Notes: generated from the letters alone by a model not told the origin. A stretch of 32,516 nucleotides of DNA from an uncultured Candidatus Saccharibacteria bacterium (GCA_964502205.1 CAZCTX010000001.1:9974-42489), one strand, 5' to 3'; positions 1-32,516 are shown, counted from the stretch's first letter. Numbers and translations: made by a program.

Positions 1-1
1 C

Positions 2-30
2 TTGCAATTTTTAAAAAAATTACATATAAT
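2..30 (+). promoter_or_regulatory. sigma70-type promoter candidate: TTGCAA, 17 nt, TATAAT
   Basis: TTGCAA at 2-7, 17-nt spacer, TATAAT at 25-30, 45 nt upstream of the ATG at 75. Confidence 0.5.
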
Positions 31-74
31 ATATTCAATTCTAAAAGGTCGTAATAAAAATACATATAATCAAT

Positions 75-449
75 ATGAAGTTTTTAAAAAAAATATTAGT
101 AGTTGTTTTAATATTAGCTATGCCAATGATTGCTTTGGCAACAGATGATTATCTTAAAATAGACTATATGAATGATGCGCCAGGTAGTGACTTTAATATT
201 ATATCTTTTGTTAAGGTTTTGATTAATTGGCTATTCTACGCATTACTAGTTGTTGCTTTGATTATGTTAATTATGGTAGGCTGGCATTATGTAACAACTG
301 GCGGGCAAGATCCGGCTAAGGTTAAAGATAATGGGAAGAAGCTAGGGTTTATTTTAATGGGTATTGCCATTGCCTTAATTGCTAAAGGATTGATTTATGC
401 TGCTTGCTTCTTAGTAACCAGCGGAACAAATGTTTGTACTTTTTGATAA
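75..449 (+). CDS. small secreted/membrane protein, TrbC/VirB2-like (T4SS-pilin-like), paralog A
   Basis: Signal-like N-terminus MKFLKKILVVVLILAMPMIALA. Two hydrophobic helices flank GGQDPAKVKDNGKK. The ORF-track end at 444-446 is a TGA; read as Trp, the frame stops at the adjacent TAA at 447-449. Confidence 0.7.
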
Positions 450-476
450 AAATTAATAAAAATTTAAAAAAAATAT

Positions 477-839
477 ATGAAGAAATTTATTTCTCTATTT
501 GTATTGGCTTTGTTTATATTGCCATTTACAGCATTGGCTCTTCCAAGCGAACCAGGTGTACAATTGCCAACTGTTATGGGTACAACCCAAGACTTATTCG
601 ACTTTATCCGAATTGCAATTAACTGAATATTCTACGCTTTGTTAATTCTTGCTGTTATCTATATTCTGTTCATTGCTATCAACTATGTAACTCAGGGCGG
701 ACAAGATCCTTCAAAAGTTAAAGACAATGGAAAGAAGTTGGGATACATTATTATTGGAATTGTCGTTGCTTTAATTGCCAAAGGATTGATTTATCTTACT
801 TGTTACTTGATTACCGGAGGACAGACTTGTAAGTTCTAA
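477..839 (+). CDS. small secreted/membrane protein, TrbC/VirB2-like, paralog B
   Basis: ATG at 477 (MKKFISLFVLALFILPFTALA) is in frame with ORF 639-839 through TGA 624-626. The C-terminal 75 aa align with paralog A (INWLFYALL vs IN[TGA]IFYALL; GGQDPSKVKDNGKKLG). TAA stop. Confidence 0.75.
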
Positions 840-846
840 TACAAAT

Positions 847-873
847 AAAACCAACCCGAAAGGGTTGGTTTTT
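847..873. terminator. intrinsic terminator hairpin
   Basis: CCAACCC-gaaa-GGGTTGG with a 5' A-run and a 3' T-run. Confidence 0.75.
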
Positions 874-893
874 CATTAATCAAAAAATGTACC

Positions 894-922
894 TTGACTT
901 TCAAGGTTATTTAGTGTAAAAT
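894..922 (+). promoter_or_regulatory. promoter candidate: TTGACT, 17 nt, TAAAAT
   Basis: TTGACT at 894-899, 17-nt spacer, TAAAAT at 917-922, upstream of infB. Confidence 0.55.
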
Positions 923-958
923 TGTATTACGCTATTAAAACCTATTAAGCTTTTTCCT

Positions 959-2443: not shown

Positions 2444-2444
2444 C

Positions 2445-2753: not shown

Positions 2754-2782
2754 TAGCCAAAATTTGATATAATAAATGTATC

Positions 2783-2858
2783 GGTCACTTGGCGAAGTAG
2801 CTAACGCTGCGGTCTGCAAAACCGTTATTCGTGGGTGCAAGTCCCACAGTGACCTCCA
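2783..2858 (+). tRNA. tRNA-Cys (GCA), CCA encoded
   Basis: Acceptor GGTCACT/AGTGACC. Anticodon stem GCGGT/ACCGT with loop CTGCAAA. T stem GTGGG/CCCAC with unusual loop TGCAAGT. Discriminator T followed by CCA. Confidence 0.8.
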
Positions 2859-2860
2859 TG

Positions 2861-2890: not shown

Positions 2891-2912
2891 AAATTAAATT
2901 TTGCACAAAGAC

Positions 2913-4472: not shown

Positions 4473-6287
4473 ATGAAAAATATATTAAAAAATATTTTGG
4501 TTATATCATTAATTCTGATAGCTGTATCATTGATGTTTGGCGGCTCAAAAGGATTGAATTTTACATCCAAAAGCAAAGATATATCTGTTAGCGAATTAGT
4601 GGCGTTGGTCAATGCAGGAAAAATTAAAGAAATCGAAATTAAAGAAAAGAATATTGTTAGTTTGGATTTTGAAGGAAATAAAAATATTGCTAAAATTAAT
4701 AGCAATGAATCTATTTTCGATGTCTTCAAATATTATAATGTTGATCCTTTAAAATTAGAGGCAACAAAAGTTGTATTTAAGGAGGATATAAATTGAAACA
4801 ATATTTTCTGACTAGTTTTGATTGGTATTGTTCCGCTATATTTCTTATTCACATTACTTAATATGTTCGGCAAGAATAGCAAACAAGGCCCTGGTCAAAT
4901 GTTTACATTCAATCAGGCAGGAGTAAAGCAATTTTTACCAAATAAAAACAAAATGACATTTAAGAATGTGGCGGGATTAAAAGAAGAGAAAGAAGAATTA
5001 ATGGAAATTGTTGATTTTTTGAAAAACCCTAAGAAGTTTACTGATTTAGGCGCAAAGATACCAAGAGGGGTTTTATTAATGGGAAGTCCCGGAACAGGCA
5101 AAACATGTTTAGCAAGATCAATTGCTGGCGAAAGTAATGTTCCTTTTTTTCACATATCAGGTTCAGAATTTGTTGAAATGTTTGTTGGCGTTGGTGCATC
5201 AAGAGTAAGATCGGCTTTCGCTATTGCTAAAAAAGCTTCGCCTTCGATATTGTTTGTTGATGAAATCGATGCCATCGGCAGAGAAAGAGGTTCTGGAATT
5301 GGTGGTGGCCAAGACGAAAGAGAGCAAACATTAAATCAAATATTAGTTGAAATGGATGGGTTTGATAATAATACAAATGTTATTGTAATTGCTGCTACTA
5401 ATAGGCCCGATGTATTAGACAGCGCATTGCTGAGACCTGGAAGATTTGATAGAAGAATAATATTACATTTGCCAGATATATCGGAAAGAGAAGAGATATT
5501 AAAGCTACATTTGGAGAATAAAAAAGTTAATAAAGATGTAAATGTTAGAAAAATAGCAGAGAGAACTCCTGGTTTTTCTGGGGCAGATTTGGAAAATTTA
5601 ACAAACGAAGGGGCTTTGCTAGCGGCTAAAAAGAACCAAAAAGAAATAACGGAAGAAAATCTTCTACAATCTATTGAAAAAGTAATATTAGGACCTGAAA
5701 GAAAAAGTCATGTTATTAAGCCAAAAGAAAAAGAAATTACCGCTTACCATGAAGGTGGCCATGCATTGGTTGCATCAAAATTAGAAAATGCAGATCCAAT
5801 ACATAAGATTTCTATAATCTCGAGAGGTAGAGCGGCCGGATATACCTTGCAATTGCCAAGTGAGGATAAGAATTTTTCAACTCGATTAGAGATACTTGAT
5901 GAATTAACTACTTTAATGGGAGGCTATAGCGCTGAAGAAATTATTTTTGGCGATATATCAACGGGTTCAGCGAATGATTTAAAAGTTGCATCAGAAAAGG
6001 CCAGAGCTTTTATTATGAAGTTTGGCATGAGCAAGTTAGGTCCAATTTCTTTAGCCGAGGATGAATCTGTTTTCTTAGGAAAATCTCTAACTTCAAAGCA
6101 TAATTATTCAGAAGAGCTATCAGCTGAAATTGATAGAGAAATGAGCGAATTAATCAAAACAGCTCATAAAAAGGCCAGGGAAATATTAGAGAAGAACAAA
6201 GCAATGCTTGAAAAAATCGCAAAGGTATTACTTGAGAAGGAAACAATAGAAAAAGACGAATTTTATGCATTACTTGAAGAAAAATAA
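4473..6287 (+). CDS. ftsH: ATP-dependent zinc metalloprotease FtsH
   Basis: ORFs 4473-4796 and 4818-6287 are in one frame, joined by TGA 4794-4796 and 4809-4811, both at the entry to TM2. Walker A GSPGTGKT, Walker B LFVDEID, zinc site HEGGH. TAA stop. Confidence 0.95.
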
Positions 6288-6345: not shown

Positions 6346-6418
6346 GGGCGTGTAGCTCAGTTGGTAGAGCGATCGTCTTATACACGATTGGTCGAGGGTT
6401 CGAGTCCTTCCACGCCCA
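6346..6418 (+). tRNA. tRNA-Ile (UAU), CCA not encoded
   Basis: Acceptor GGGCGTG/CACGCCC. D arm GCTC-AGTTGGTA-GAGC. Anticodon stem ATCGT/ACGAT with loop CTTATAC. T loop TTCGAGT. Confidence 0.85.
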
Positions 6419-6426
6419 CAGATTTG

Positions 6427-6561: not shown

Positions 6562-7476
6562 ATGGAAATAATATTCAACGAGACTGGAAAAATACGTTTT
6601 GATAAATGATTGGCCTATAAATTCCCGGAAAAAAGTAGGGAATTTTTCAATAATAATATAAAATCTGGGAATATAACATTAAATGATGCAAAAACAAAAT
6701 CATCGGTAAAATTAAAGATAGGTGATAAGATAATAATAGATGATGAAATTCTAAATGACCAAGCGGTGAAGATAATGCCGAATAAAAAAATAAAGATAAA
6801 GATTGTTTTTGAAAATGATGATTTTCTGATTGTTGATAAGCCGGCGGGATTATTGGTTCATCCAGTAACTTTAAAAGATGAAGATACTTTAGCTAACGCT
6901 TTGGTAAATAAATATCCAGAAATTGTTAATGTTGGCGAAGATCCTTTGCGCCCAGGAATTGTTCATCGACTTGATAAGGATACTTCTGGATTAATAATAG
7001 TGGCTAAAAATCAAAAATCTTTTAAGATTTTAAAAGATAAGTTTCAGAAAAGACAAATACATAAAGCTTACTATGCTTTAGTTTACGGCAAGTTGAAAAA
7101 TAAAATAGGGGAAATTGATGCTCCGATTACAAGATCTAAAAGCAAATTCAACCGTCGTAAAATTAGTTTTGATAAAGAAATGGGGAAGGAGGCATTGACT
7201 AGATATGAAGTTGAAAAAGAATACGATGATGTTTCTCTGTTAAGAGCATATCCGGAAACAGGAAGGACACATCAGATAAGAGTGCATTTGGCATCAATGT
7301 CTAATTTCGTAATTGGTGACAATGAGTATGGTTCTAAGAAAATTAATAGCAAATATAATATAGCTCGACAATTTTTGCATGCTTTTCAAATTGATTTTAC
7401 CTATAAAAAGACAAAATACCATTTTGAATCTAAATTACCGGCCGATTTAGCAAAGGTCTTAAAAGAAATTGAATAG
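6562..7476 (+). CDS. RluA-family (RluD-like) 23S rRNA pseudouridine synthase
   Basis: ATG at 6562 joins ORF 6610-7476 through TGA 6607-6609 (RFDK[TGA]LAYKF; S4-like N-terminus). Catalytic motif HRLDKDTSGL. TAG stop. Confidence 0.9.
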
Positions 7477-8622: not shown

Positions 8623-8643
8623 TGGCCTTAAGGGCCATTTTTT
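8622..8643. terminator. bidirectional terminator shared by convergent genes
   Basis: ATGGCC-ttaag-GGCCAT followed by a T-run. It overlaps the uvrC stop codon. Confidence 0.6.
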
Positions 8644-9902
8644 AATTGTTTAAGATAAAGTTTATGATGATAATTAATAGCAAAGCGATGAGACTCATCT
8701 TGAATTGAATTCAAAAGATTTTTTAGTTCGGAAGAGAGATCTTTAAGATAAAAGAAACTTACTCTTTCTTTTGAATAAACTAGAAACTGCTTCTTTCCTT
8801 TCGCAAGAGAGCCCAGAAGCACATTTTTAAAATATTTATCTTTTGAAAAAATTGAAATGGCGGCATTGAGTTGAGCAATACCCCCATCGATGATGATTAA
8901 ATCTGGATGAATTCAATGAATGTTATTAATTCTTCTTTTAAACACTTCTTTCATCATCAATATATCGTTGGGTGATAATTCGGTATATTTTATTTTAAAC
9001 TTCTTGTATTCTGCTTTATTGGGTTGACCATTAGAAAAAAACACCAAAGAAGCGGTTGCAAATTTTCCGGATATGTTGGAAACATCATACATTTCTATGT
9101 TTTTTATTTGTTTTTTTGTTTCAAAAAGCTTGGCTATTTCTAGGAGTGGTTCATCATAATTACGAGATTTAATTTCAAGAGAAGTTTTGTGCTTGAAAAG
9201 ATTTTCAACTGATAATATTTGTTTTTTTATTAAATTTGCTTGTTCGAAACTTTGCTCTTTTATAAGCTTCTGTATTTTTGCTTTGAGTTTTTTAATTATT
9301 TTGGTATTATTGAGAGTTAATACATCTATTAGGTTTGAAATGTTTTGTGTGTATTGGCTTATTTCTTCTTTTGTTGCTTTATGATTTTTTAAACAGCAAA
9401 AGCCCGGACAGAGGTTTATTTGATTATTAATACAAGGCTTAATATGTTTACTGTTGCAGGTACAATAGGGAAATATTTGGCGTAAAAATTTTAAAAGATT
9501 CTTAAGGTGTGTGCCCGATGTAAAAGGACCAATGATTATTCCTTCGTTGTCCTTTTCATTATGAGTAATTATTACTTTAGGAAAAATATCTTTTGTGATT
9601 TTTACAAAAAAATAATTTTTGCTGTCTTTTAAAATAATGTTTATTCTTGGCTGGTAGCGCTTAATATATTTAGATTCGAGAAGTAAAGCTTCTGTTTCGT
9701 TGTTAGTTATGATTCATTTTAAATTATTAGCATACTTACTAATTGATTCATTTTTACGAATACTAATGTCAACATATGATTTCAAACGTTGATTTAGGTC
9801 ATTGGCTTTGCCAACATAAACTATTTCTTTTTTATTTGAAAAAATATATATGCCGGGAAGGTGCGGACTATTTTTAATTTTTTCAATAATATTTTTATTC
9901 AT
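8628..9902 (-). CDS. uvrC: excinuclease ABC subunit C, short form (424 aa, no HhH2 tail)
   Basis: I translated the minus frame codon by codon; only TGAs at 9714-9716 and 8913-8915 interrupt it. GIY-YIG N-terminus (PGIYIF...VYVGKA), ETEALLLES, Cys-rich box, PDLIIIDGG, DESHRFAI. TAA stop. Confidence 0.9.
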
Positions 9903-11463
9903 GGTTTTGGGATAAGTTGAGAATTTTGAGCATTGATTGACCAGTCATTTCAATTGGTTTTGGAATATTAAATATTTCTAATATAGTAGGGCTAATGTCT
10001 GCCAGAATGCCAATTGCGCTTCTTTCAACTTGCAATATTTCGTTATGAGTTTTTGGTATTGGATATTTTCATTGATTATCAATCAGGTGAACTGGCACAA
10101 AACTACCGTCATGGCCAAATTCTGATTCTCCAGTAAGAGGATTTTTCATACGCTCAATATTGCCGTGATCAGACGTGATAATAAAAGTAAAATTCTTTTG
10201 AAGCCCATAGTTAATAAGCTTCTCTAGCTCGCTATCAATAATCGATATTGCTGTTCTGGCAACATCCATATCACCAGTGTGGCCAGCCATATCGGCGTTT
10301 GGATAGTTTATAAGTATAAAATCATAAACACCTTCGTCCATTATTTGCTGAGCTCTTTCTGTTATACTTGGAGCCTCAAGATATGGATTTTCTTTAAAAT
10401 TTAACGACGGATCGGATGGCAGAATAAACCAATATTCCCCAGGAAACGGTGTTTTATTTAAGCCATTAAAATAATAAGTAACATGAAGAGATTTAATCGA
10501 TTCGCTTATATGTGCTTGTCTTTTTTTATTGTTCGACAATACCATTGATAAACAATTGTCAATCTTTTCGTTTGGGAACGCAATTGACGCGTTGATTTTT
10601 TGATTTAAATCTACTAGACTTGTAATTTTTAAATTAGATATATTTGTTTCTTTTTGCAAGAGCTTATTTGCTAGATACTCTATTGGAAAAGAGTTCGGTT
10701 TTAAATTGAAAAATATAACACTATCGTTAGAACTTATTGGTTTAAATATATTTTTAATGGCAAAGGGTTCAATAAACTCATCGCTGATGCTTTTTGTTTT
10801 TAATTCTGTCAAGTATTGTATTTCTTGTTGGTTTTGGTTGTTAGAAATTAAGAATTTAAAGAATTTATCAATATACATTTCGCTGTGTTCGTTAAGGGCG
10901 TAAAAACGTCCGGTAATTGAAGCTATATTTATTGAACCAAGGGTTGTTGATTCTTTGTTGAGATTTTCAATAATTTCTAAAACTTCATTTTTGGGGCCAT
11001 CTTTACCATCAGATATTAGATGGACGCAAATATTGTTGAATCCATTTGCTCTAGCAAGATAGATTAATGAAATGAGGTGCTCTTTAGATGCAATGGTTTC
11101 GTTTGAGCCAATCAATCCAATAAGATGAAGGGTACTGTTGTTGTTTTTCGAGTGATTAATTGCCTCCAAAAGTATTTTGTTTTTAAGAAATTCACCGTTG
11201 GAAATGCTTTGGTCAATGCGGGTTTTGGCTTGGTATATAACTTTGCCGGAACCTAAAATTAAATGGCCGACTTCGCTTGATCCTTCCTCAAGATATTTTA
11301 AGCCGCTAGCAATTCCAGATGTTTGAAGCGCGTAATATGGATAATTTTGCTTGAGGTGGTCAAGAAATGGTGTTTTGTATAAGAAAATTGGGTTTGTATG
11401 GTCATTACGACCAATGCCTCAGCCATCAACAATGATAAGGCAAACTTTTTTGTTATTACCCAT
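9895..11463 (-). CDS. gpmI: 2,3-bisphosphoglycerate-independent phosphoglycerate mutase
   Basis: ATG at 11463. The frame was verified by hand, with TGAs at 11419-11421 (IIVDG[TGA]GIG) and 10069-10071. Motifs GSSEVGH, ISDGKDGP, NYPNADMAGHTG, SDHGN. The TAA at 9895-9897 overlaps the uvrC ATG. Confidence 0.93.
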
Positions 11464-12235: not shown

Positions 12236-14302
12236 ATGTTAAAAAAGATATTGAAATCGCCTATATTTATAAGTATATGTATTTTGGCTTTATTATATAT
12301 ATTTCTTTTTAATCAAATCCCTTGGGATTTAATTTTAAGGGATACAATGGTTTCAGGAGGGGATACAGGCTCACATAATTACATTGCTTATAAAATAAAA
12401 GATATATTTCCAACAATTAAAACATGGACTCATGATTGGTATGGTGGCTTTCCTTTCTTGTATTTCTATCCGCCACTAATGTTTGTTTTTTCGGCCTTAT
12501 TAAGTTTTGTTTTAAAATTAAATGTTGCTTTTAAAATAACAACATTGCTAGGGACATTGCTTTTGCCTATTTGTGTTTATCTGGGGTTAAAGTTTTTAAA
12601 TTACAAAAAGCACATTCCCGAATTGGGAGCCCTAGGATCAATAATGTTCTTGTTTTTAGAAGCTTTCAGTATATATGGAGCAAATATACCTAGCACACTG
12701 GCGGGTGAGTTTTCTTATTCATTTTCTTTTGCTTTATTCTTTTTGTTTATTGGCTTGTTCTCAAAAGGAATGGATGAAAACAAATATCTAATTCCTAATA
12801 TTGTTATTTTAGCTATTATGGCATTAGCCCATCCTTTTCCAGTTATTAGTGCTACACTTTATGCGATGATATTAATTTTTGTAAAAAAAGCTTGAAAATC
12901 AAGATTAATATATATGATAAAGACTTTTGGAATGGCTTTTTTTATATCAGCTTTCTGATCAATTCCTTTTTTGTATTACAAGGGGTATACCAGCATGATG
13001 AATTGATACCGAACAATTGAAATTAAAGAAATATTTCCGGATTTCTTAATTCTGTTTTGACTATCAGCTGTTGTCGGCTTGTTTGTTTCAATTATTTCTA
13101 AAAATTGGAAAATTGTTAATTTTTTAATAATTGGAATTACAAATTTTGTTTTGTTTTTATTAATTAATAATTCACCGATATATAATACGAGATTTTTGCC
13201 TTTCTTTATTATGACATATATTCTCGTTGGGGCGATTGGACTTGGATATTTGCTTGATGAGGTTTTCAAAGATTCAAAAGTGTTAAATGTTGTTGCCGTT
13301 GTAATATTAATTGTTTGAAATTTGTCTTTGATTAATCCTAGCTTCTTTTGAGGAAAGAATACAAGGATAACATCGCAGGTTAAATTCATTCCTTTATGGA
13401 TGAATTGAAACTACAGTGGTTTTGAGAATAAAGACGCCTATATTAATAGCGCTATGCCTTTGTTTGAATATTTAAAAACATTACCATATGGAAAAGTAAT
13501 GTGGGAGTACAGGCCAGAATATGATTCATATGGTACCCCAAGATTTCTTGAAAATATCCCTATTTTAACTGGTAAACCAACTTATGAGGGGTTGCTAATA
13601 GAATCGTCGGTATTTGGACCATTTCATTTTATAAACCAAACAGAGACTACTCAGAGCCCAACCTCGGCTATTGCTGGGTTTGAATATCCGCCTTTTGATT
13701 TTAAAAAGGGGGTTGAGCATTTGAAATTGTCTAATGCGAGATATTTTGTTGCTTTTACTGACACCATTAAGAATTTAGCTAAAGAAAATATGACTTGACT
13801 TGCTAATGCAGGTAGCTTCTCGGTGTATGAAGTTCCGGAAAACAATTTAATTGATGTTTATGACGATTATGAAGTTGTTAAAAGAGAGAAAAAATGAATT
13901 AAAAAATCAATCGATTGGTACAAAAATGGAGATTTAAATATTCCTATTGCTTTTTATTCTTCGAAAAAAGAAAGGGAGATGTTGATGAAAACTGAAAATT
14001 CGCCAAAGGTTAACGATGTGTTAGTTAAGGAGTTAACTGAGAATAGAATATCTTTTGAGACAAAAGATATTAACAGATTACATTTATTAAAAGTTTCATA
14101 TTTCCCAACATGAAAAGTAAAGGGAGGCGATGGACCTTTTCTTGTCTCGCCGTCTTTCATTGGTATAATTCCAAGGCAAAACAATGTTACTGTTTATTTC
14201 GGTATGGGGATTATTGACCAGATATCATATGCTTTAACCTATTTGTCAATTGCTTTAATTTTGGTCAAAATATTAAAACCAAAACTAATTAAGTTTTTGT
14301 AA
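12236..14302 (+). CDS. large polytopic membrane protein, YfhO/PTPS-related GT-C-like glycosyltransferase candidate (688 aa)
   Basis: ORFs 12236-12895, 13079-13318 and 13454-13798 plus linkers lie in one frame. I checked every codon; 10 in-frame TGAs and no TAA/TAG until 14300-14302. N-terminal GGDTGSHNY...WYGGFPFLYFYPPL. About 10 TM helices. C-terminal SYFPT[TGA]KVKGG...VTVYFG. Confidence 0.75.
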
Positions 14303-16120: not shown

Positions 16121-16192
16121 ATTTTAAAAATTAATATTAATATATAATATTGTTTCAAATTTATTCATTTTTGTCAATCAAAATATATATTA

Positions 16193-17845: not shown

Positions 17846-18067
17846 ATGCAACATCAAATAGTTTCAATTGTTCAAATAGTTACTGCTTTTGCTTTGATCA
17901 TTTTAATTATGATTCAACAAAAAGGTGGAGGGCTTTCTGGTTTTTTGGGCGGTACGTCAACAGACTATATGAAAAAAAGAGGGTTGGAAAAGTATTTACA
18001 TACTTTTACTATAATATTAATGGCATTATTTATCTTATCTTCAATTTTAATGTTTGTTGTAAAGTAA
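17846..18067 (+). CDS. secG: preprotein translocase subunit SecG
   Basis: 73 aa, two TM helices separated by the Gly-rich loop QQKGGGLSGFLGG. Confidence 0.8.
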   Translation: MQHQIVSIVQIVTAFALIILIMIQQKGGGLSGFLGGTSTDYMKKRGLEKYLHTFTIILMALFILSSILMFVVK

Positions 18068-19981: not shown

Positions 19982-21793
19982 ATGAATGAAGAGAAAGTAG
20001 ATGCGGCCAAAGCGCCGGTTAGGAAAATTGTACCAAGACGTTACAGCAATCAGCACCCTGCAGGGAAAAGACCTATGTCTATAAACAAGGCGAAAGAAAG
20101 AATAAGTGGAGATAATAATCCAGTTAAGATTATGGCCTTAGGTGGCTTGGGTGAGTTTGGTAGAAATATGTTCGTTATGGAATATAAAAACGAATGTATA
20201 ATCGTTGATATGGGGCTACGTTTTCCAGAAGAAAATATGCCTGGAGTAGACCTTATTATTCCAAGTATTGAATATTTCAATAACAACAAGAATTTAAAAA
20301 TTCTTGGGGTGTTTATATCACATGCTCATTACGACCATTTAGGAGCTGTTCCTTATTTAATTTCAAAATTAAATTATCCACCAATTTATACAACGCCTTT
20401 AACAAAGGAAATAATCAACAAAAGACAAGAAGAGTTCACTGGCATGAAGAAGTTGGACATTCGATTGGTTGATTCGGAGAAAAACAATAGAATTGAATTT
20501 AGTAATTTTATTATTAATGTTTTTCATGTAAATCATAATGTGCCTGATTCAGTTGGGTTTTTAATTGAAACAAAACAAGGAAATATTATGTATACTGGAG
20601 ATTACAAGATCGATTTTAATCCAATATTTGATAAGCCCGCTGACTTAACTAGAATAGTTAAATTATCGTCAATGGGAGTCGATTTACTGATGCCAGATAG
20701 CACTGGTATAGAGCAAGAAGGGCATTCCATTTCGGAGCAAGAAATATTTCAAAATCTTGAAATTATCTTTATGCGTGCTAAGGGTAGAATAATATTAGCA
20801 ACTTTTGCATCTTTAATTAGCAGATTGCAACAGGCAATTGTTTTAGCTGAAAAGTTTAATAAGAAAATAGTTATCAATGGGTACTCAATGAAAACTAACC
20901 TAGCAATTGCTAAAAAGCTTGGATATGTTAAGACAGAGTTAAAGACGGTCATTGATGTTAAAGACATGCATAGGTATAAGCCCGAAGAATTGGTAATTTT
21001 AACGACCGGTGCTCAAGGAGAAGACAATGCTGGATTAATGAAAATAATTAATAAGGAGAATAAGAATATTAGAATACAACCGGGGGATACAATGATATTT
21101 TCTTCATCAGTTATTCCGGGAAATGAAATGGCAGTACAATGCTTAAAAGATAGTTTAACTCGTCAAGGAGCTAATATATATCATTACAAGATGTTAGACA
21201 TTCATGCTTCCGGTCATGCTCATAAGGAAGATATTAAGATGATACTTAATCTTATTAAGCCAAAACATATAATGCCAGTCCATGGATTCTACTACATGCA
21301 GAAACTGCTTAATGATCTTGCTCAGGATGTACTAAAGCTTAAAAAAGAAGATTGTATTTTAGCTGGAAATGGCCAGGTAGTCGAGATGGTAAGAGGAAAA
21401 GTGGTAATTACACCCAAGTTCGTGCCAGCTAACTATGTTATGGTAGACGGGTTGGGAGTAGGAGATGTTGGCGAGATTGTTTTACGTGATCGCCAAGCGT
21501 TGTCCCAAGACGGCATGTTTATTATCAATTTGATAATCGATCGTAAGCATAAAGATATTAAGGTTTTAGAAATTATATCAAGAGGCTTTATCTTTATGAA
21601 GGATTCTAATGAATTGGTAAGAAATACAAAAGAAAAAGTTAATCAAATTGTTCAAAAGATTATTCAAAAATCTTCGACCGATGATGTAAATGAGTCGTAT
21701 ATTAGAAATATATTAAGGGATGAAATCGGTTTGTTCTTGTTCCAAAAAACGGAGAGAAGGCCAATGATAATTCCAATTGTACTTGAGATATAG
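19982..21793 (+). CDS. rnj: ribonuclease J
   Basis: 603 aa. Metallo-beta-lactamase motif SHAHYDHLG, beta-CASP region, HASGHA. About 45-aa basic N-terminal extension. TAG stop, no TGA. Confidence 0.9.
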   Translation: MNEEKVDAAKAPVRKIVPRRYSNQHPAGKRPMSINKAKERISGDNNPVKIMALGGLGEFGRNMFVMEYKNECIIVDMGLRFPEENMPGVDLIIPSIEYFNNNKNLKILGVFISHAHYDHLGAVPYLISKLNYPPIYTTPLTKEIINKRQEEFTGMKKLDIRLVDSEKNNRIEFSNFIINVFHVNHNVPDSVGFLIETKQGNIMYTGDYKIDFNPIFDKPADLTRIVKLSSMGVDLLMPDSTGIEQEGHSISEQEIFQNLEIIFMRAKGRIILATFASLISRLQQAIVLAEKFNKKIVINGYSMKTNLAIAKKLGYVKTELKTVIDVKDMHRYKPEELVILTTGAQGEDNAGLMKIINKENKNIRIQPGDTMIFSSSVIPGNEMAVQCLKDSLTRQGANIYHYKMLDIHASGHAHKEDIKMILNLIKPKHIMPVHGFYYMQKLLNDLAQDVLKLKKEDCILAGNGQVVEMVRGKVVITPKFVPANYVMVDGLGVGDVGEIVLRDRQALSQDGMFIINLIIDRKHKDIKVLEIISRGFIFMKDSNELVRNTKEKVNQIVQKIIQKSSTDDVNESYIRNILRDEIGLFLFQKTERRPMIIPIVLEI

Positions 21794-22604: not shown

Positions 22605-23570
22605 ATGAAATTAAATAGAGGATTTGTCGAAAATATATTTATAGTATTTATGCTATCTTTGATAATGGCTTTTTCGGCATTTCTTTCCAAACAAGTTAAG
22701 GAGGTGGAGATATTTAAATTAAAGACTGTTAATAATGCTGTGCGTAATGCCAAGGATAAGAATGTATTAGTTTTGGGTATTGCTGGGTTTGATAGCAATG
22801 GGCCACTTTTGACAGATGTTATGATGGTTGCCAATGTAAATTTGGAAAAGGGGTCAGTAAAAGCGATATCAATACCAAGAGATTTGTTGGTGAGTATCAG
22901 GGGAAGTAAAAGTTTTACTAAAATTAATAATTTATTAACAGTTGATAATCCTAATTTGAAAATTAAGAATACGGAGTTAATTCGTGAAAAGGTTGAACAA
23001 ATTACTAATTTAAAAATTGATAATATTGTAATTGTTGATCTAGATGGTTTTAGATATTTTATTGATGCAATCGGAGGGGTTAATGTATATCTGGAAAAGA
23101 CATTGTATGACCCTTTGCTAGCTAATCCTGATAATCCGAACGAGAGGTTTCATTTAGAGGCCGGCTGGAATTATTTGGACGGGAAAAAAGCAGCAAAGTT
23201 TGTAAGATCAAGATATGCGGCGACTGGTGATTTTTCGAGAATAAGCCATCAGCATGATTTATTAATGGCTGTATTTCAAAAATTAAAGAAGCTAAATGCT
23301 TTTACAAATCCGGTAATGCTGTATAAGATTTACAGTAGTTGAGGCGGATATCTATATACCGACTTTAATGTGAACGATGGTTTTAAGTTCTTACCTTTAG
23401 CTAAAAATTTGGATGGTAAAAATATTAAATTTTCTACTATAAGCTATTCTAAGCCAGAGCAATTGCTTGTTTCAACTTCGTCGGATGTTTATGGATACTT
23501 TTTAATGCCAAAAATTGGGTTAGAAGATTATTCAGAAATTCATAATTATATATATAATTTTATTTATTAA
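22605..23570 (+). CDS. LytR-CpsA-Psr (LCP) family protein
   Basis: ORFs 22605-23342 and 23370-23570 are in one frame, joined by TGA 23340-23342. N-terminal TM helix. Motifs TDVMMVANVN, ISIPRDL, DAIGGVNVYL, LDGKKAAKFVRSR...GDFSRISHQH. Confidence 0.88.
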
Positions 23571-23571: not shown

Positions 23572-24162
23572 ATGGATAATACTAATTTGAAAAAAATTAT
23601 TGTTGGATTAAATAATCCAGGCAAAGCATATGAGCAAACACCACATAATATTGGGCGTACTTTTCTAGAATGATTAGTAGAAAAATTAATTGAAGACCAA
23701 AAAATTGATAAGACATGTAAATGAAAAAATGATAAAAAAATATTAGCTAAGGTTTTGGAAGCTAAGATCGGACATAAAGATGTTATCTTTGTTTTGCCTT
23801 TAACTTTCATGAATGAATCGGGGAATTCAGTGTCAAAGGCCATAAGCTACTATAAAATTGATACGAAGGGTCTTATGGTAGTTCATGATGAGTCAGATAT
23901 GCTAATTGGCAAATCAAAGTTGGGCTTTAGCCATTCAGCAGCAGGGCATAGAGGGGTAAACTCAATAATACAAAATCTTAAAACTCAGTCTTTTTTTAGG
24001 TTCAGGATTGGCATAAGGCCAACTGATATTTTAGAATCAAAATATAAATTTAAGGCTGGAGACTATGTGGTTAAGAAAATGACGAAGGAAAATCAAAAGA
24101 TATTGCTGAATAGTTTTGAGAAATTCTACATCGATATGATGAGGTGAATTATTAATAGCTAG
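23572..24162 (+). CDS. pth: peptidyl-tRNA hydrolase
   Basis: ATG at 23572 (IVGLNNPGKAYEQTPHNIG) joins ORF 23755-24147 through TGAs at 23671 and 23722. Motifs FMNESG, VVHDESD, GHRGVNS. The ORF-track stop at 24145-24147 is a TGA; the real stop is TAG 24160-24162. Confidence 0.9.
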
Positions 24163-24839: not shown

Positions 24840-26138
24840 ATGAAAAAACTTTGGACTAACATTAGCGCGGTTATGATAAGTAAGATAATTAGAATTGTTC
24901 TAATGCTAATTTCCGCAATACTAGTGAGTCGCTATTTCGGACCCGCAGGGAAGGGTATTTTTGCTTTAATAGCAACTCTTCCTATTTTAATAGTAAATTT
25001 GGGAAATTTAGGTATTACTAATGCTAATATTTTTTTAGTCTCTAAGGAAAAACAAGACGAGAGGAATATATTTTATAATTCTTTTTGGTTAGGATTAGCG
25101 TTGAGTGTGTTTTTTGTAATTATATTTATTTTAATTCTAAACACAAATTCAAAAATTTTCTTTGGTACGCTGGAAAGATCTTATATCTTAATGATTGTCG
25201 CTATTACCCCCTTCGTATTAATGGAATCTTTCTTTCAAGGGATACTAACCGGTAAAAAAGATTTTAAAACATTTAATGTTGGCCAAATAATATCTTATTC
25301 GCTTATTGTGGCGGGAGTGATTATAGGTAAAATATTTTTCGATTTGAACATTTATTACGTTGGAATTTTAACATCACTATCGTTAATAGCCCCATGTATT
25401 ATATATTTTTTTGTTCTGTTAAAACAATTTGGTCTCAAATGACATTTTGACCTATGTTTATTAAAACAAGAGTTTGTTTTTGGTTTTAGAGCCTATCTGG
25501 CTTCTGTTATGACATACCTAATATTACGTAGTGATATTTATTTGGTTAATTATTTCTTGGAAGTGAAAGATGTAGGTCTATATTCGGTAGCAGTAAATTT
25601 TTCAGATACTCTATTGCTTATCGCTAACGCTGTCGCCGTAGTTTTGTTCCCGCAAATAATTGGCAATCTTGACATCGGATTAAGAACTATGCTGAAAGCA
25701 GCAAGACTAGTCTCTTTATCTACATTTTTAGCTGCGATTGTTTCTTATGTTTTTGCTAGACCAGTAATAAACACTTTATTTGGGGTAAAGTTTTATGAAT
25801 CATTGCCATCACTCTATATTTTAATCCCGGCCTCTTTCTTTTGAGCACTTACAATAATTATGTCTTTGTATTTGGCGTCTAAAGGGTTTCCTTGGATTAC
25901 CGTCTGAATATGATTGCCAGGGTTGATGTTGAACATATTAATAAATATAATATTTATCCCAAGATTTGGCTTAATTGTTGCGCCCAGTGCCTCATTGATA
26001 TCCTACTTGTTAACATTTTGTTTGCATTTTTATTATATTTCAAAATATGATAAAATAAAAATAAGGGAAGTTATGGTTCCCTACAAACAGGAACTAACCG
26101 ATGCCTTTTGCTATATAATAAAAATAATAAAAAATTAA
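24840..26138 (+). CDS. Wzx-like oligosaccharide flippase (MOP superfamily)
   Basis: ORFs 24840-25442, 25509-25844 and 25914-26138 are in one frame, joined by TGAs at 25440, 25842, 25905 and 25911. About 12 TM helices. Typical N-terminus ...ISKIIRIVLMLISAILVSRYFGPAGKG. Confidence 0.8.
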
Positions 26139-26141
26139 AAG

Positions 26142-27107
26142 ATGGATAGCAATGAATATTTAGATATTTTAAAATTAGTATCTAGGTACGAAGATAGTTT
26201 TTGATTTAAAAATAAAATAAACCCATCTTTGGGCTGAAAATTTTTAGTAGTAAAAATTTTGATAGCTAATGGCAAAAATATGCTCTTTGGCATGCTTTTT
26301 ATTATTTTAAAATTTTTAAAGCTAAAAAATCGTGCGCTGACTAATTATTACACGAAAACTGTTTTAAATTACTTTTTCAATACAAAAAAAGACGATCTGG
26401 TTCTTTTATTTGGAAGGCCTTTTTATTATAAACCTGGCGGAGAAATGGAGCCTCACGAAAAGTTCGCCTCCTTTATGTCTTTGATAATTTTAATGTCTGA
26501 GGTGGTAATAAGAGACCAATATTGTATTAAAGAATTTATAAAAGATGATTTTACTATTATTGACGCTGGCTCACAGATAGGAGAATTTTCTTTATATGCT
26601 AACAATCTTAGTCCCAATAGCAACATATATAGCTTTGAGCCATCTAAATATGTATTTGAAATTTTATGAAAAAATACAGAGAATGTTAAAAAAATTAAAA
26701 TTTTTAATTGCGCCTTGGGAGAAGAGAACAAAAAAATTAAACTACTGGTAGGAAATAGAAACCCTATGTATGGTGGGGATGCAATAGAAAATAGTGGTAT
26801 GGCGAAAAATAAAATAAATAAATTTTTAAATTCTGAGGAAGTGCAAATGGTAACTATAGATAGTTTTGTAGAAGAGCATAAAATTGAAAAGGTTGATTTC
26901 ATTAAAATGGATACTGAGGGGTATGAAAGAAATATAATAATGGGGGCAGCGAAAACTATTAGGCGTTTTTCCCCTGTAATTGTATGCTCGGCTTATCATC
27001 TCAAAGACGATAAAATTAAAATACCAGAATTAATTAAATCGATTAACCCTGAGTACAAATACAGAATTGAGAAGAGGGGAGAAGAAGATTTAGTTTTCTG
27101 AAAATAA
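26142..27107 (+). CDS. FkbM-family methyltransferase with ~110-aa N-terminal extension
   Basis: ATG at 26142. TGAs at 26202, 26235, 26667 and 27099 join the fragments. Motifs IIDAGSQIGEFSLYA...IYSFEPS and VDFIKMDTEGYE. The real stop is TAA 27105-27107. Confidence 0.75.
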
Positions 27108-27117
27108 AATAGCAATA

Positions 27118-28251
27118 ATGAACATTTTGTTTTTATCTCACACTTTTGATAACGGTGGAGTAGAAAAAAATATTTCTCAGCTGGTTTTATCTTTTAAAAA
27201 AAGAGCCTCTGTGCCGATAAATGTTAAAGTAGTGTCTTTGTTGGGCAAAGGACCTCTTTACGATGCTGAATTTTGCAAATGCTTAATGCCACTTAACCTT
27301 AATGTTCAAAAAATACGTAAGTTTAAATTCTTTTCTTATATCTTGATTTTACTTTTTTTACCGGTTTTAATATTCAGATTGAAAAAAGAAGTAAAAAATT
27401 TTTCTCCTCAGGTTGTTTGTAGCAATATGTGGCTATCAGACATATTGGCCTCGCTACTTAAGCATAATGAAGAGTTTAAATTAGTATCTATACAACACGA
27501 TATTATTAAAATAAATTTCCTGTTAACTTATTTTAAAACTATTGCCCTAAAGCGTATGAACAATGTCGTTGCAGTATCTTGTACAGTTAAAAAATTTCTA
27601 GTAGATTACTTTAAAGTTCCGGAAAATAAAATTAAACTTATTTATAATGGCATAGATTATAAAAAGTTTGAATCTTGTAAAAAAGAAAATCTTAATGCTC
27701 CTCTGGTTTTAGGGACAATTGCTAGATTGGACAAGATTAAAGGCCATATTCTTGTGCTTGAAGCATTAAAATTATTAAGCAGTCAGGGGGTTGCATTACC
27801 TCAATATATTATTGTCGGCGACGGCCCTGAGAAAAACATATTACATACGTTCGTTTCCCAAAATAATTTAAAGAACGTTTTATTTGTCGGCAATGTGGTT
27901 GACATATCTGTTTGACTAAAACAAATCGATATTTTTGTTTTGCCTTCGAAATCAGAAGGAATGGGTATCGCAATAATCGAAGCGATGTTAGCGAAAAAAC
28001 TTATCATAGCCTCAGATATGCCTACAATTAAGGAATTGATTATTAACAAAGAAACCGGCTTGTTAATAAATCCCGTTGATTCATTAAAATTAGCAGAAAC
28101 TATTCTGTGAACTTTGAGTCACCGAGACGAAATAAATATAATCAAAAATAACTCGTATGAATGAATAAAATCTAATGAAAAAATTTTTGAATCCTATAAC
28201 TCGACTTCTAAATATTTAGATGTTTTTGGTATTCCATACGAGCAAATCTAA
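27118..28251 (+). CDS. family-4 (GT-B) glycosyltransferase
   Basis: ORF 27118-27915 continues through TGAs at 27913, 28108 and 28162 to TAA 28249-28251. C-terminal motif IFVLPSKSEGMGIAIIEAM. Confidence 0.85.
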
Positions 28252-28313
28252 AGATACGATTAATCGATGTTGTTTTTTGCATAATTTTAAAAAATAACAA
28301 AATCCTGCTTAGA

Positions 28314-28342
28314 TTGATTTTAGTAGCTAAATTTGCTAAAAT
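28314..28342 (+). promoter_or_regulatory. internal cluster promoter candidate: TTGATT, 17 nt, TAAAAT
   Basis: TTGATT at 28314-28319, TAAAAT at 28337-28342, 28 nt before the ATG at 28371. Confidence 0.5.
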
Positions 28343-28370
28343 TTACAAAACACTAATAACGCAAGCATAT

Positions 28371-29453
28371 ATGAAGATAATGACTGTCATGGGTACAAGG
28401 CCAGAAATTATAAGATTAAGTGTTCTGCTAAAAGCCTTTGAAAATTACGGAATAGACAATTTTACCATTTATACAAACCAAAACTTTCACGAAAGTTTAT
28501 CAACTATTTTTATTGAAGAATTGGGAGTTAAAATTGATCATTTTATTGATAAATGCCCGAACACTGATTTAAAAAAATGAATTGAAAACTTAAATTTCAA
28601 TATAGAAAAACTTATTAAAGAATATCGTCCTGATTTTTTTCTTGTTTTAGGCGACACTAATAGCGCATTATCGGCGTTTGTAGCAAAAAAATACGAAATA
28701 CCCATAGTTCATTTGGAATCAGGCAACAGAAGTTTTGATATGAAAATGCCGGAAGAAAGAAATCGGATTCAAATTGACCATATAAGTGATTTTCTTTTGC
28801 CTTATACTGAAAATTCAAAAGAAAATTTAATAAGGGAAGGGGTTGACGAAAAAAAAATTTTTGTATCTGGCAATCCAATTGTTGATGTTTTAAGCGAATA
28901 CAGTGGCAAAATAAAAAAAAGTAAGATCTTAAAAGAACTAAATCTTAAACCTCAAGAATACTTCCTGGTCACAATACATCGCAATGAAAATACAGAAAAT
29001 AATTTAATATTAAAAAACATAGTTGAAGGAATCAATTTGGTTTCCAGCCACTATCATATGCCCGTAATTTGAGGTATGCACCCGCGCACAAATTCAAAGA
29101 TACAAGATAGCAATCTTGTTTTTGACAAAAATGTAAAGATTCTTAGTTCGTTTGATTTTTTTAATTTTGTTATGTTGGAACAAAATGCATATATGATTTT
29201 AACCGATAGTGGCACTGTTCAAGAAGAAGCCTCTCTGTTTAATGTACCGACCGTAACGGTGAGAAATAGCACCGAAAGACCTGAGACAATTTGGTGCAAG
29301 TCCAATATTCTAAGTGGCACAGAGAATCCAAATAAAATTCTAGAGGCAACAAAAGTTATGGCTGTTGCAGATAAAAATTGAATATCTCCATATATTAAAG
29401 ATAGTGGTTTTTCAAACAGAGTAATTAATTTTTTAAAAAATACTTTTAAATAA
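28371..29453 (+). CDS. non-hydrolysing UDP-N-acetylhexosamine 2-epimerase (WecB/FnlC/WbvD-like)
   Basis: Starts MKIMTVMGTRPEIIRL. Fragments are joined by TGAs at 28578, 29070 and 29379. Motifs LVLGDTNSAL, HLESGNRSFD...PEERNR, [TGA]GMHPRT, TDSGTVQEEA. TAA at 29451-29453. Confidence 0.88.
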
Positions 29454-29460
29454 AGATATT

Positions 29461-30360
29461 ATGAAAATATTAATAACAGGAGGGACAGGAACCATTGGGA
29501 AGGCATTATTAAAAAAACTCAGTCCGACAAATGAGCTTGTTGTTTTTTCCAGAGATGAGCTTAAGCAATCTCAATTAAAGGCAGACTATCCGAACGTAAA
29601 ATTTATTATCGGTGATGTCAGGGATTATTCCTCTGTAAAAAAAGCTTTTATGGGCATGGACGCTATAATACATGCTGCTGCCATGAAAAGAATAGAGGTT
29701 TGCGAGGAACACCCAATGGAGGCCATCAAAACAAATGTTATTGGTACGGAAAACGTAGTCAACGTTGCCCGAGAATTGGGAATTAAAAAATTAATAAGTA
29801 TAGGCTCTGATAAAGGCGTTGAGCCTGTCAACGCTTATGGAATGACAAAAGCGTTACAAGAAGTCATAACTACAAACGCTGGCTTCAACTGTGCAAGATA
29901 CGGAAATGTATTCTCAAGCCGAGGAAGCGTAGTCCCTTTATTTTTACATCAAAAGTCTCAAAACATGCCTCTTACAATAACTAACCCAGAAATGACTCGC
30001 TTTATTCTTACTATTGACGACGCAACGGAAATAATTTTAAAGGCGATTGAAAGCGACATGAAAGGTAATATTTTCGTAAAAAAATCTCCTGCTACGGCTA
30101 TAAAAGATATTGCGAGCGCGATAAGCGATAATACGAAGATAATTGGATCGTTTTTTTGTGAGAAAATGCATGAGACTCTAATCTCTAACGAAGAAATGGC
30201 TAGAACAGAGGATGTTGGCGATTATTATATAATTCATAGAGACAAAAATAGTGTTTCGAAAAAACAAAATGAAGAGAAAAAATATTCTTCTGATGGCGTA
30301 ACTCTACTGACCGTTGATGAGATAAAAAACTACATAAGTATTTATTATGAGGATAAATAA
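29461..30360 (+). CDS. UDP-GlcNAc 4,6-dehydratase/5-epimerase (CapE/FnlA/WbjB/WbvB-like short-chain dehydratase)
   Basis: Motifs ITGGTGTIGK, SRDELKQ, IGDVRD, IHAAAMK, IGTENV, YGMTKA, RYGNVFSSRGSVVPLF, MTRF, and a C-terminal GDYY...LLTVDEIK segment resembling CapE as I remember it. Confidence 0.85.
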   Translation: MKILITGGTGTIGKALLKKLSPTNELVVFSRDELKQSQLKADYPNVKFIIGDVRDYSSVKKAFMGMDAIIHAAAMKRIEVCEEHPMEAIKTNVIGTENVVNVARELGIKKLISIGSDKGVEPVNAYGMTKALQEVITTNAGFNCARYGNVFSSRGSVVPLFLHQKSQNMPLTITNPEMTRFILTIDDATEIILKAIESDMKGNIFVKKSPATAIKDIASAISDNTKIIGSFFCEKMHETLISNEEMARTEDVGDYYIIHRDKNSVSKKQNEEKKYSSDGVTLLTVDEIKNYISIYYEDK

Positions 30361-31216
30361 AAAAACAGTTGCAATAATAGCTCCGACCGGAATGTTGGGA
30401 TCCGGTGTTTATTCTATCTTAAAAGATAAGTATAAATTGGTACTAATATATAGAAATAATGATAAGTTAGAATTATTGGATAAAAAATATGGCAAAGTAG
30501 CTGAGCAAAAAAACATTTGTTTTAATATAGAGTCTCTTATGCAAAACCCTGAACAAATAAAAGGTTTGATAAAAAAAATTGGGACAATTGATTCAATCAT
30601 TAATTGCTCTGGGATTATTAATAAATATGCAGATAAAGACATAAAAAAAACATTTTTTATCAATGCAGATTTTCCAAACTTGTTAAGCGATTATTATGAG
30701 GATAAGCTAATTCAAATCACAACCGATTGTGTTTACAACGGTATGGACGGTTTCCCTTATAACGAAAACTCTAGAATAACGTCTTTGGATTCATATGGAA
30801 TTTCTAAATATTTGGGAGAGCCCCAAAAAAGCCTCACATTAAGAACGTCTATTGTGGGAGAGGAGTTGTCTGGCTCCGCATCTTTGTTAGAATGGTTTAA
30901 ATCTAACAATAATAAAACTGTAATGGGGTATGCAAAACACTACTGGAATGGAATTACAGCACGAGAATATGGGCGAATTTGCGATACTATTATAAAAAAT
31001 CGAAAACAATTTCCTAAAAACGGAACTTACCACGTTTTTAGCGAAAAAGTGTCAAAATACGAAATGTTAAAAAGTTTTAAAGAAAAGTATGGATTAAATA
31101 TAAAAATAATTAAGGACACGGAAAAGTTTTGTGATAGAACTCTGTCTACAATTTATCCAGTACAAAAAAAATTAAAAATAAATTCTTTTAAAAAAATGAT
31201 TCAAGACTTAAATTAA
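30347..31216 (+). CDS. RmlD-like NAD(P)-dependent sugar-nucleotide 4-reductase (WbvR/FnlB-role candidate)
   Basis: 289 aa. Rossmann N-terminus AIIAPTGMLGSG, catalytic YGISK. Overlaps the upstream gene by 14 nt. Confidence 0.7.
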   Translation: MRINKKTVAIIAPTGMLGSGVYSILKDKYKLVLIYRNNDKLELLDKKYGKVAEQKNICFNIESLMQNPEQIKGLIKKIGTIDSIINCSGIINKYADKDIKKTFFINADFPNLLSDYYEDKLIQITTDCVYNGMDGFPYNENSRITSLDSYGISKYLGEPQKSLTLRTSIVGEELSGSASLLEWFKSNNNKTVMGYAKHYWNGITAREYGRICDTIIKNRKQFPKNGTYHVFSEKVSKYEMLKSFKEKYGLNIKIIKDTEKFCDRTLSTIYPVQKKLKINSFKKMIQDLN

Positions 31217-31217
31217 T

Positions 31218-32441
31218 ATGAGAATACTTATAGTTACACAAAATTTCCCACCCGATATAGGCGGGGCAGCCATAAGATTATCTGGATATGCCGAACATTT
31301 AACAAAATTGGGGCACCAGGTTTGTGTTTTGTGCGCGAACCCTATTTACCCTCGTGGTAGAATATTCGAAGGGTACAAAAATAAATGATTTCAAAAAGAG
31401 CAAAAGAATGGATACGAAATAATAAGAACCTGAATATTGCCGGTAAAGCCAAGTAGTCACTTTTTTTTAAGACTCTTATCCTATAACTCTTTTGTTGTGT
31501 CCGCTTGCTTTGCTTTATTAAAAATCAAAAAACCTAATTTGACAATTTCGGCGACCCCTTCTTTTTTTGCATCTTTTGTCAGTATATTTAATAAAAATTT
31601 ACGTGGCGGGAAATTAATACTGGATATAACAGACGTGTGGCCTGATTCTGCGATAGCAACTGGCTTTATGAAAAAAGGTTTTTTGTTTTTTTTCGCAAAA
31701 AAAATAGAGCAATGGATTTATAGACAAGCAGATCATATAACTTGTGGTTCGTTGGGTACTAAAAAAGAATTACTTAAAAATAAAAATCTATTAAATAAAA
31801 TCGAAGTAATTCCCGATGCAATTGATGCCAACATTTTTTCAAGTATTACCGAAGAAGAGGGTATTACAAATAAATTTAATTTAAATAACAAATTTGTTGT
31901 TGGCTTTACAGGGTTAATGGGATTCGCTCAAAATGTAAAGATGCTAGCTTTAGTTGCAGAAAAATTAATAAATTACAAGGATATTGTTTTTTTGCTGGTA
32001 GGAGATGGCGGGATGAAAGAAGGGGCGGAAGCGTTTTGTAAAAAAAATAATTTAGTAAATGTAGTATTTATTGGTGAAAAACCTTATTCAGAAATGCCCA
32101 AATATATTAAATGTTTTGACATAGGGTTAGTCACATTAAAAAACGAGCCTTTGTTCGAAAACTCTGTTCCGTCTAAGTTATTTCATTACTGAGCCGGCGG
32201 AAAGCCCGTTATAATAAATCTTAAAGGCGTTGCTTCGGACATAATTCAAAATGCAAATGGCGGAATACTTTGCAGAGAAGATGACGCCGAAGATATGGCA
32301 AACAAAATATTGTTTTTATATACGCATCGTATAGAGGCAAACCTTCTTGGGAAAAATGGACAAGCTTATGTTTACGAAAATTATAGTCGTGATAAAATAG
32401 TGCAAAAACTGAATGATCTTATAAATAAATTAAATAATTAA
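31218..32441 (+). CDS. family-4 glycosyltransferase, WbuB-like
   Basis: Starts MRILIVTQNFPPDIGGAAIR. TGAs at 31386, 31431 and 32190 join the fragments. Motifs DVWPDS and PSKLFHY[TGA]AGGKPVI. TAA at 32439-32441. Confidence 0.85.
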
Positions 32442-32463
32442 ATTGTTGTTTAAAACGCGAGGC

Positions 32464-32491
32464 TTGATTTCTATCAAAAATTTGCTATAAT
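32464..32491 (+). promoter_or_regulatory. promoter candidate: TTGATT, 16 nt, TATAAT
   Basis: TTGATT at 32464-32469, TATAAT at 32486-32491, 9 nt before the truncated tRNA. Confidence 0.5.
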
Positions 32492-32500
32492 CTTACTAAT

Positions 32501-32516
32501 GCCCAGGTGGCGGAAC
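32501..32516 (+). tRNA. 5' end of a tRNA (probably type II, Leu/Ser-like), cut by the window edge
   Basis: GCCCAGGTGGCGGAAC parallels the 5' ends of the two tRNA-Leu genes (GCCGAAGTGGCGGAAT...). Identity cannot be determined. Confidence 0.5.

Follow-up and report, generated by a model that had tools for sequence, protein, structure and literature searches.

How the codon TGA is read is the question raised by the 32,516-bp stretch of DNA analysed here in full (GCA_964502205.1, CAZCTX010000001.1:9974-42489; referred to below as the window), which was deposited as an uncultured Candidatus Saccharibacteria bacterium. A first-pass annotation, made from the sequence alone, had proposed that TGA was a sense codon throughout, best read as tryptophan (Trp) rather than glycine (Gly). 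This was borne out here: genes were continuous and homologous across TGA codons, and TGA in the window is sense and means Trp. There is very little doubt in our minds that the window is chromosomal DNA of a member of family JAKLIH01 (order UBA6257, class Minisyncoccia), to which it was assigned from sequence comparisons, with genetic code 4, UGA encoding Trp and only UAA and UAG serving as stops. The recoding itself is already known, having been published for the same family in 2026.

In-frame TGA codons

With only TAA and TAG taken as stops for gene calling, the window (31% G+C; positions 1-32516) contained 31 non-overlapping protein genes (92% coding, 9,976 sense codons) and eight tRNA genes predicted by ARAGORN, and is part of a Minisyncoccia (Patescibacteria) genome. 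The absence of in-frame TAA and TAG followed from this construction. A scripted recount over the whole window gave 57 in-frame TGA codons in 23 of the 31 genes, and 24 TGG codons, exactly matching the earlier hand counts (57, 23 of 31 and about 24). As had also been stated, every gene ended in TAA (27) or TAG (four) once TGA was recoded, and the codon positions 228, 624, 11419, 18663, 14111, 6607 and 23671 had all been given correctly. TGA occurred at 5.7 per 1000 codons in frame and at 28 per 1000 when the two off frames were counted, a pattern expected of a codon for a rare amino acid. A table 11 reading would split the 31 genes into 88 pieces.

Full-length homologs from standard-code relatives aligned continuously through the TGA sites, and in 110 of 149 aligned pairs the same TGA position was found again in a related species assembled independently. 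Such conservation speaks against the view that these TGA codons are real stops in pseudogenes or sequencing errors, a view for which the many short genes in public table 11 annotations of the window DNA could be invoked. Selenocysteine fares no better, as 57 sites in 23 housekeeping genes are far too many, the sites align with Trp and not with cysteine, and the tRNA with anticodon UCA found in the family (see below) has a normal length and matches the model for ordinary tRNAs rather than a tRNA-Sec. Nor does the window resemble a recoded phage, since it carries IF2, FtsH, L19, SecG, RNase J and the eight tRNAs and is syntenic with contigs of 60-154 kb from metagenome-assembled genomes (MAGs). 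The chance that any of these four explanations holds is considered negligible.

Amino acid encoded by TGA

Window genes were aligned codon by codon with nine related loci, giving 24,719 codon pairs. Window TGA had TGA opposite it in 110 pairs and TGG in 20; GGN was found once, and 18 pairs had other codons, mostly hydrophobic or aromatic, with TTT the commonest. Opposite window TGG, TGA was found 32 times and TGG 11 times, so that TGA and TGG were exchanged 52 times in total. None of the 1,394 GGN codons of the window was opposite TGA in the nine loci, and one replacement of TGA by GGA was seen at site 17505, against locus L002. Fifty-two TGA/TGG swaps against one TGA/GGN pair make TGA and TGG synonyms and TGA and GGN not, which rules out code 25.

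The alignment columns at TGA sites, whose tabulation the first-pass annotation had proposed, were examined for two proteins, a 688-amino-acid (aa) membrane protein and a solute-binding protein. Each TGA was entered as X in the two queries, which kept the search from favouring any residue, and both alignments held 107 homologs, of at most 50% identity for the membrane protein and at most 42% for the solute-binding protein. Closer relatives were left out because W at their TGA sites only reflects the table chosen by the pipeline. Eight of the 16 TGA sites fell in columns with 94-100% W, against a background of 1.5-2.5% W, and none of the 16 fell in a Gly column. In the membrane protein, five of the ten sites (12956, 13004, 13406, 13895 and 14111) displayed W in 105-107 of the 107 homologs, and the remaining five lay in variable columns. 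Its seven TGG codons behaved similarly: for six of them, 89-107 of the 107 homologs had W in the column. In the solute-binding protein, W was present in 101 of 107 homologs at TGA 18663, in 102 at 19338 and in all 107 at 19746, and was the commonest residue of the column at 18117. Two motifs previously quoted as evidence for Trp, MPKHL-TGA-E at 18663 and SYFPT-TGA-KV at 14111, were thus upheld. So was the claim that conserved glycines use GGN and never TGA: 22 of 28 conserved Gly columns in the membrane protein and 14 of 19 in the solute-binding protein read GGN in the window, and none read TGA. The C-termini of both proteins coincided with the ends of their homologs.

Adding TGA had further been said to restore a normal Trp content, and with TGA counted the membrane protein indeed contained 2.5% Trp, equal to the 2.5% of its homologs.

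Solved structures were informative at fewer sites. Site 15 of cofactor-independent phosphoglycerate mutase (iPGM, gpmI; TGA 11419), described earlier as an aromatic position, was opposite F/F/F/F/V in solved iPGMs, that is F in four of five and V in one. In the epimerase of the glycan cluster, site 234 (TGA 29070) was opposite Y/F/F/F/F and site 337 (TGA 29379) opposite W in 4neq. Sites 34 and 51 of peptidyl-tRNA hydrolase (pth) and site 70 of the epimerase were variable and uninformative in the PDB alignments. RluD site 16 (TGA 6607) also falls in a variable position; it is opposite Ala in Escherichia coli RluD and hence uninformative, the TGA being kept in L022 and L027. The alignment of two pilin paralogs was confirmed, TGG 228 of gene A being opposite TGA 624 of gene B.

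Code 25, in which UGA is glycine as in class JAEDAM01, has in its favour the same phylum, the low G+C content and the fact that it was the only UGA recoding known in the phylum before 2026; the TGA-to-GGA replacement at 17505 could also be counted in its favour. Beyond the rarity of TGA/GGN pairs and the lack of any Gly column against eight near-invariant Trp columns, a Gly reading would leave the Trp content at only 0.24%, and the tRNA(UCA) of the family displays A1-U72 and G73, whereas bacterial tRNA-Gly has G1-C72 and U73. Glycine is accordingly given hardly any credence.

TGA codons near gene ends

Two genes displayed TGA immediately before or close to their stop codon. Pilin gene A ended with CTF-TGA-TAA (444-449), and its ortholog with CTF-TAA-TAA in L022 and CTFKFN-TAA in L027; a methyltransferase gene ended with VF-TGA-K-TAA at 27099. 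Both ends would be compatible with an incomplete or context-dependent reassignment in which UGA means Trp inside genes and stop at some gene ends. However, a TGA of pth located five codons before its end interchanged with TGG among relatives, the TGA ten codons from the end of the solute-binding protein corresponded to W in 107 of 107 homologs, and the authors of PMC13092985 found neither C-terminal extensions nor RF2 in four family genomes. A tandem TAA, moreover, renders a one-residue extension harmless. A double meaning of UGA is therefore considered very unlikely, if slightly less so than glycine. To judge from the orthologs, TGA 444 looks as if it arose by mutation of the first of two tandem stops, with a single C-terminal Trp added; such a harmless extension fits all other data, the alternative being a residual stop.

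Lineage

A scan with RNase J of one genome per GTDB species recovered seven syntenic loci (L001-L007) of 74-87% identity, and syntenic L022 and L027 were added through their IF2 homologs. L002 and L027 correspond to contig JAKLIH010000001.1 of GCA_022709715.1, the MAG that names GTDB family JAKLIH01. Relative to this contig, RNase J was 87% and IF2 76% identical, and gene order was common throughout the window. IF2 identities ranged from 64 to 100% within a cluster including JAKLIH01 and then dropped across a gap to at most 54%, which is suggestive only. Close relatives were all Patescibacteria/Paceibacterota MAGs, JAKLIH01 included, and no mollicute was among them, in agreement with the earlier opinion that the gene content was of the Patescibacteria or candidate phyla radiation type rather than mollicute.

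Strains 99% identical to the window were present in about ten Logan and JGI samples, the species being contained in SRR28714611-14, SRR22388160, DRR438508 and JGI 3300010357, and a 100% identical IF2 protein was found on 19 contigs from about ten samples. These near-identical strains were seen solely as short metagenome contigs, and the nearest GTDB representative was that with 87% identity in RNase J; an exact look-up of the RNase J of the window returned no match. One contig of the same species reached 9 kb upstream of the window and carried gyrA, trmD and a third pilin gene. The gyrA gene of this species (L013:3697-6141) encodes 814 aa and is intein-free; that of the JAKLIH01 type genome (L027:17121-20891) encodes 1,256 aa, with an intein containing a LAGLIDADG endonuclease.

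Database labels within the group were heterogeneous. Several relatives (L001, L004, L005 and L007) were deposited as "uncultured Candidatus Saccharibacteria", and an IF2 protein of 66% identity (P0252) was labelled Candidatus Methanofastidiosum, an archaeon. These two labels are likely loose or wrong, or the contigs mis-binned.

Decoder tRNA and release factor

None of the eight tRNAs detected by ARAGORN in the window displayed a UCA anticodon, as the first-pass annotation had noted, and none was found in tRNA scans of the family loci around the window (L001-L029). A metagenome collection was scanned with a pattern for Trp-type tRNA(UCA), which yielded 120 loci, mostly mitochondrial- or mycoplasma-like; none of them overlapped with the family loci by BLAST. 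About 20 of these loci, of 28-33% G+C, carried one tRNA in nine sequence variants, always located after tRNA-Thr/Tyr/Thr. Several belong to series of samples in which family contigs were found too, and activated sludge is named in the title of one contig. The genes flanking the tRNA displayed many in-frame TGA codons at Trp-like sites, for instance ILwGPPG (w, TGA) in a RarA-like ATPase. Through an exact search with the neighbouring EF-Ts gene, this locus could be assigned to JAKLIH010000002.1 of GCA_022709715.1, where the tRNA(UCA) occupies L150:13155-13229 (ARAGORN; 64 bits with the Rfam tRNA model). The same arrangement was encountered in L151, L165 (GCA_029567295.1) and L156. This tRNA has an ordinary length; its acceptor end, A1-U72 and G73, was preset by the search pattern. 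The corresponding contig of the species of the window was not found, EF-Ts look-ups giving other species of the family, and the tRNA sequence was not found in the supplements of the 2026 Nucleic Acids Research (NAR) article.

Seven kilobases upstream of the tRNA(UCA), an RF1 gene (prfA) was identified at L150:5974-7068 (424 bits with NF001859 against 268 with prfB; PVT motif). It contains three in-frame TGA codons, meaning that the factor that ends translation itself depends on UGA as a sense codon.

All nine variants of the tRNA(UCA) displayed a mismatch at 27:43 (A.A, G.A or U.C) and hence a 4-bp anticodon stem (examples at L150:13155-13229, L041:644-717, L072:1127-1201, L059:51-124 and L124:3534-3611). 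Pair 29:41 covaried (G-C or A-T), which is evidence that the remainder of the stem is real. In the one example found (L041:2373-2444), tRNA-Trp(CCA) lay 1.7 kb from the tRNA(UCA) and displayed G1-C72 and a 5-bp stem; the two tRNAs of L041 shared little beyond the anticodon arm. Because the acceptor of the tRNA(UCA), AGGGG...CCCCUG, is canonical for bacterial tRNA-Trp and the molecule diverges from tRNA-Trp(CCA), it is not a recent duplicate of the latter. It is tentatively suggested, as one possibility and not the likeliest, that the UGA decoder is more than an anticodon mutant of the resident tRNA-Trp, being an old paralog or an acquired tRNA, and that its stem, "unpinned" as the term is used in the 2026 NAR article, is perhaps functionally tied to UGA reading. 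In the available text of the NAR article (PMC13092985), 4-bp stems are discussed only for tRNA-Trp(CCA), and a 27:43 mismatch of the tRNA(UCA) is described neither there nor in the available text of bioRxiv 10.64898/2026.05.24.727570.

Other elements were observed around the tRNA(UCA). In one species of the family, a large serine recombinase gene (L165:9153-10691, L167:3494-5032) abuts or overlaps its 3' end, which suggests that a mobile element integrated there. Small open reading frames (ORFs) for a "23S rRNA intervening sequence protein" (PF05635) were found among the tRNA genes at L150:2960-3319, L150:12787-13101 and L167:3119-3442.

Proposed decoding and its weighing

RF2 is the release factor that recognises UGA. 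In the decoding scheme favoured here, UGA would be read by the dedicated Trp-type tRNA with anticodon UCA, UAA and UAG would be terminated by RF1, and RF2 would have been lost, its absence across the family being taken from the literature. At about 31% G+C, most Trp codons would have drifted from UGG to UGA (57 against 24 in the window). The organism of the window would possess the same tRNA(UCA) and have undergone the same loss of RF2, as the genomes of its family indicate.

The published record agrees with this scheme. Fakih et al. (NAR, 20 April 2026; PMC13092985) presented the change of UGA to Trp in family JAKLIH01 as "a new independent case", with 150-303 supporting Trp columns by Codetta in four genomes, a tRNA(UCA) in two of the four and a retained tRNA-Trp(CCA) with a 5-bp stem. 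RF2 was absent from these four genomes, which displayed 0% UGA stops and no C-terminal extensions; UGA made up only 4-10% of stops in sister lineages. The gTranslate preprint of May 2026 (bioRxiv 10.64898/2026.05.24.727570) assigned table 4 to 12 further JAKLIH01 genomes and likewise reported a tRNA(UCA) and no RF2. That the family is monophyletic and lacks RF2 is taken from the literature. The same preprint reported a second UGA-to-Trp lineage in Patescibacteriota, consisting of ten genomes of genus GCA-2747955, and named Patescibacteriota as the first phylum in which tables 4, 11 and 25 all occur. A Trp recoding in such a lineage had been called unusual by the first-pass annotation; unusual it is, but it had been published in 2026 for JAKLIH01 itself.

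Several points weigh against the assignment to code 4 in family JAKLIH01. Variable columns, which are uninformative, account for half of the TGA sites tested. TGA 444 directly precedes TAA where an ortholog has TAA, and could in principle still stop. The window and the 9 kb upstream of it yielded neither a tRNA(UCA) nor a release-factor gene. The Trp-type acceptor end of the tRNA(UCA) was demanded by the search pattern, and was thus a selected feature and not a discovered one. Finally, family membership is based on similarity and synteny rather than on a marker-gene tree.

Genes with and without TGA

Pilin-like gene A (75-449, plus strand) carries, besides the TGG at 228 that is homologous to a TGA of its paralog, a TGA as its last sense codon at 444. 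Its neighbour, pilin-like gene B (477-839, plus), displays TGA 624 in IN-TGA-IFYALL, which is TGA in L022 and TGG in L027. IF2 (959-2443, plus; 494 aa) is devoid of both TGA and TGG and served as an anchor for finding the same species and its relatives. In FtsH (4473-6287, plus), TGA 4794 and 4809 are both TGA in L027, and one of them is ATG in L022. A tRNA-Ile with anticodon UAU was observed at 6346-6419 and is conserved in L022, L026, L027 and L029; the usual tRNA for AUA is of the lysidine-modified CAU type. The gene for the RluD-like pseudouridine synthase (6562-7476, plus) holds TGA 6607.

On the minus strand, uvrC (8628-9902; Pfam domains from a 99% identical locus) has TGA 9714, which is TGG in L027, and TGA 8913, and gpmI (9895-11463) has TGA 11419 and TGA 10069, the latter being TGG in L022. 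The gene for the membrane protein (12236-14302, plus), whose homologs carry PF10131, contains ten TGA codons starting at 12893, 12956, 13004, 13058, 13316, 13349, 13406, 13796, 13895 and 14111. A DksA/TraR-type zinc-finger protein is encoded at 15755-16120 (minus) and has neither TGA nor TGG; a plus-strand ORF at 15759-16127 was rejected as spurious, the real gene being this DksA/TraR-like ORF. The HtrA-like serine protease gene (16340-17341, minus; Pfam Trypsin_2 and PDZ) displays TGA 17090, conserved in five relatives.

The small gene secG (17846-18067, plus), without TGA or TGG, precedes the solute-binding protein gene (SBP_bac_5; 18087-19778, plus), which carries TGA 18117, 18264, 18663, 19245, 19338 and 19746. 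RNase J (19982-21793, plus; 603 aa) has no TGA and was the anchor for taxonomic placement. TGA 23340 in the gene for the LytR-CpsA-Psr (LCP) protein (22605-23570, plus; PF03816) is replaced by TGG in L002 and retained in five other relatives. At each of the three TGA sites of pth (23572-24162, plus), located at 23671, 23722 and 24145, between one and three of six relatives have TGG and the others TGA.

The surface-glycan gene cluster (24840-32441, plus) is composed of genes for a Wzx flippase, the methyltransferase, a GT4 glycosyltransferase, the epimerase, two dehydratase/reductase-like proteins and a second GT4. Its 17 TGA codons were located at 25440, 25842, 25905, 25911, 26202, 26235, 26667, 27099, 27913, 28108, 28162, 28578, 29070, 29379, 31386, 31431 and 32190; 28578, 29070 and 29379 belong to the UDP-GlcNAc 2-epimerase (28371-29453, plus).

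Consequences for annotation

Several public records of the lineage are annotated in fragments because table 11 was used: the JGI and NCBI calls with that table were fragmented in L017, L023, L025, L026 (GCA_035453665.1) and L028; with table 4, the calls for this DNA or for close relatives of it (L027 and L029) were full-length. Besides the splitting caused by table 11, choosing table 25 would turn every UGA-encoded Trp into Gly. Through this lineage, Patescibacteria become the sole bacterial phylum in which three codes (4, 11 and 25) are known to be used; in its free-standing, AT-rich and reduced genome, UGA was captured independently in the manner of mycoplasmas. With the recoding in print since 2026, the present analysis adds confirmation from raw sequence and one more JAKLIH01 species.

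Comparison with known systems

The window shared with the published JAKLIH01 genomes the recoding, the G+C content and the stop usage (about 85% TAA, 15% TAG and 0% TGA). With GCA_022709715.1, from which a tRNA(UCA) and RF1 are known, it was syntenic at 76-87% protein identity. Genus GCA-2747955 belongs to the same class, Minisyncoccia, and displays the same recoding, but the window clustered with JAKLIH01 contigs, and none of the recovered relatives belonged to that genus, judged by names only. Class JAEDAM01 (Absconditabacterales, BD1-5), which uses code 25, belongs to the same phylum and captured the same codon, the amino acid being Trp here and not Gly. More distantly, Mycoplasmatales and the endosymbionts Hodgkinia, Zinderia, Nasuia and Stammera also combine code 4 with AT-rich, reduced genomes, and their tRNA-Trp(UCA), loss of RF2 and use of UGA as the majority Trp codon liken them to the JAKLIH01 lineage. 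Unlike them, the window contains an LCP protein, HtrA, a glycan cluster and pilins of type IV secretion system type, and it comes from an unrelated phylum in which the recoding had an independent origin.

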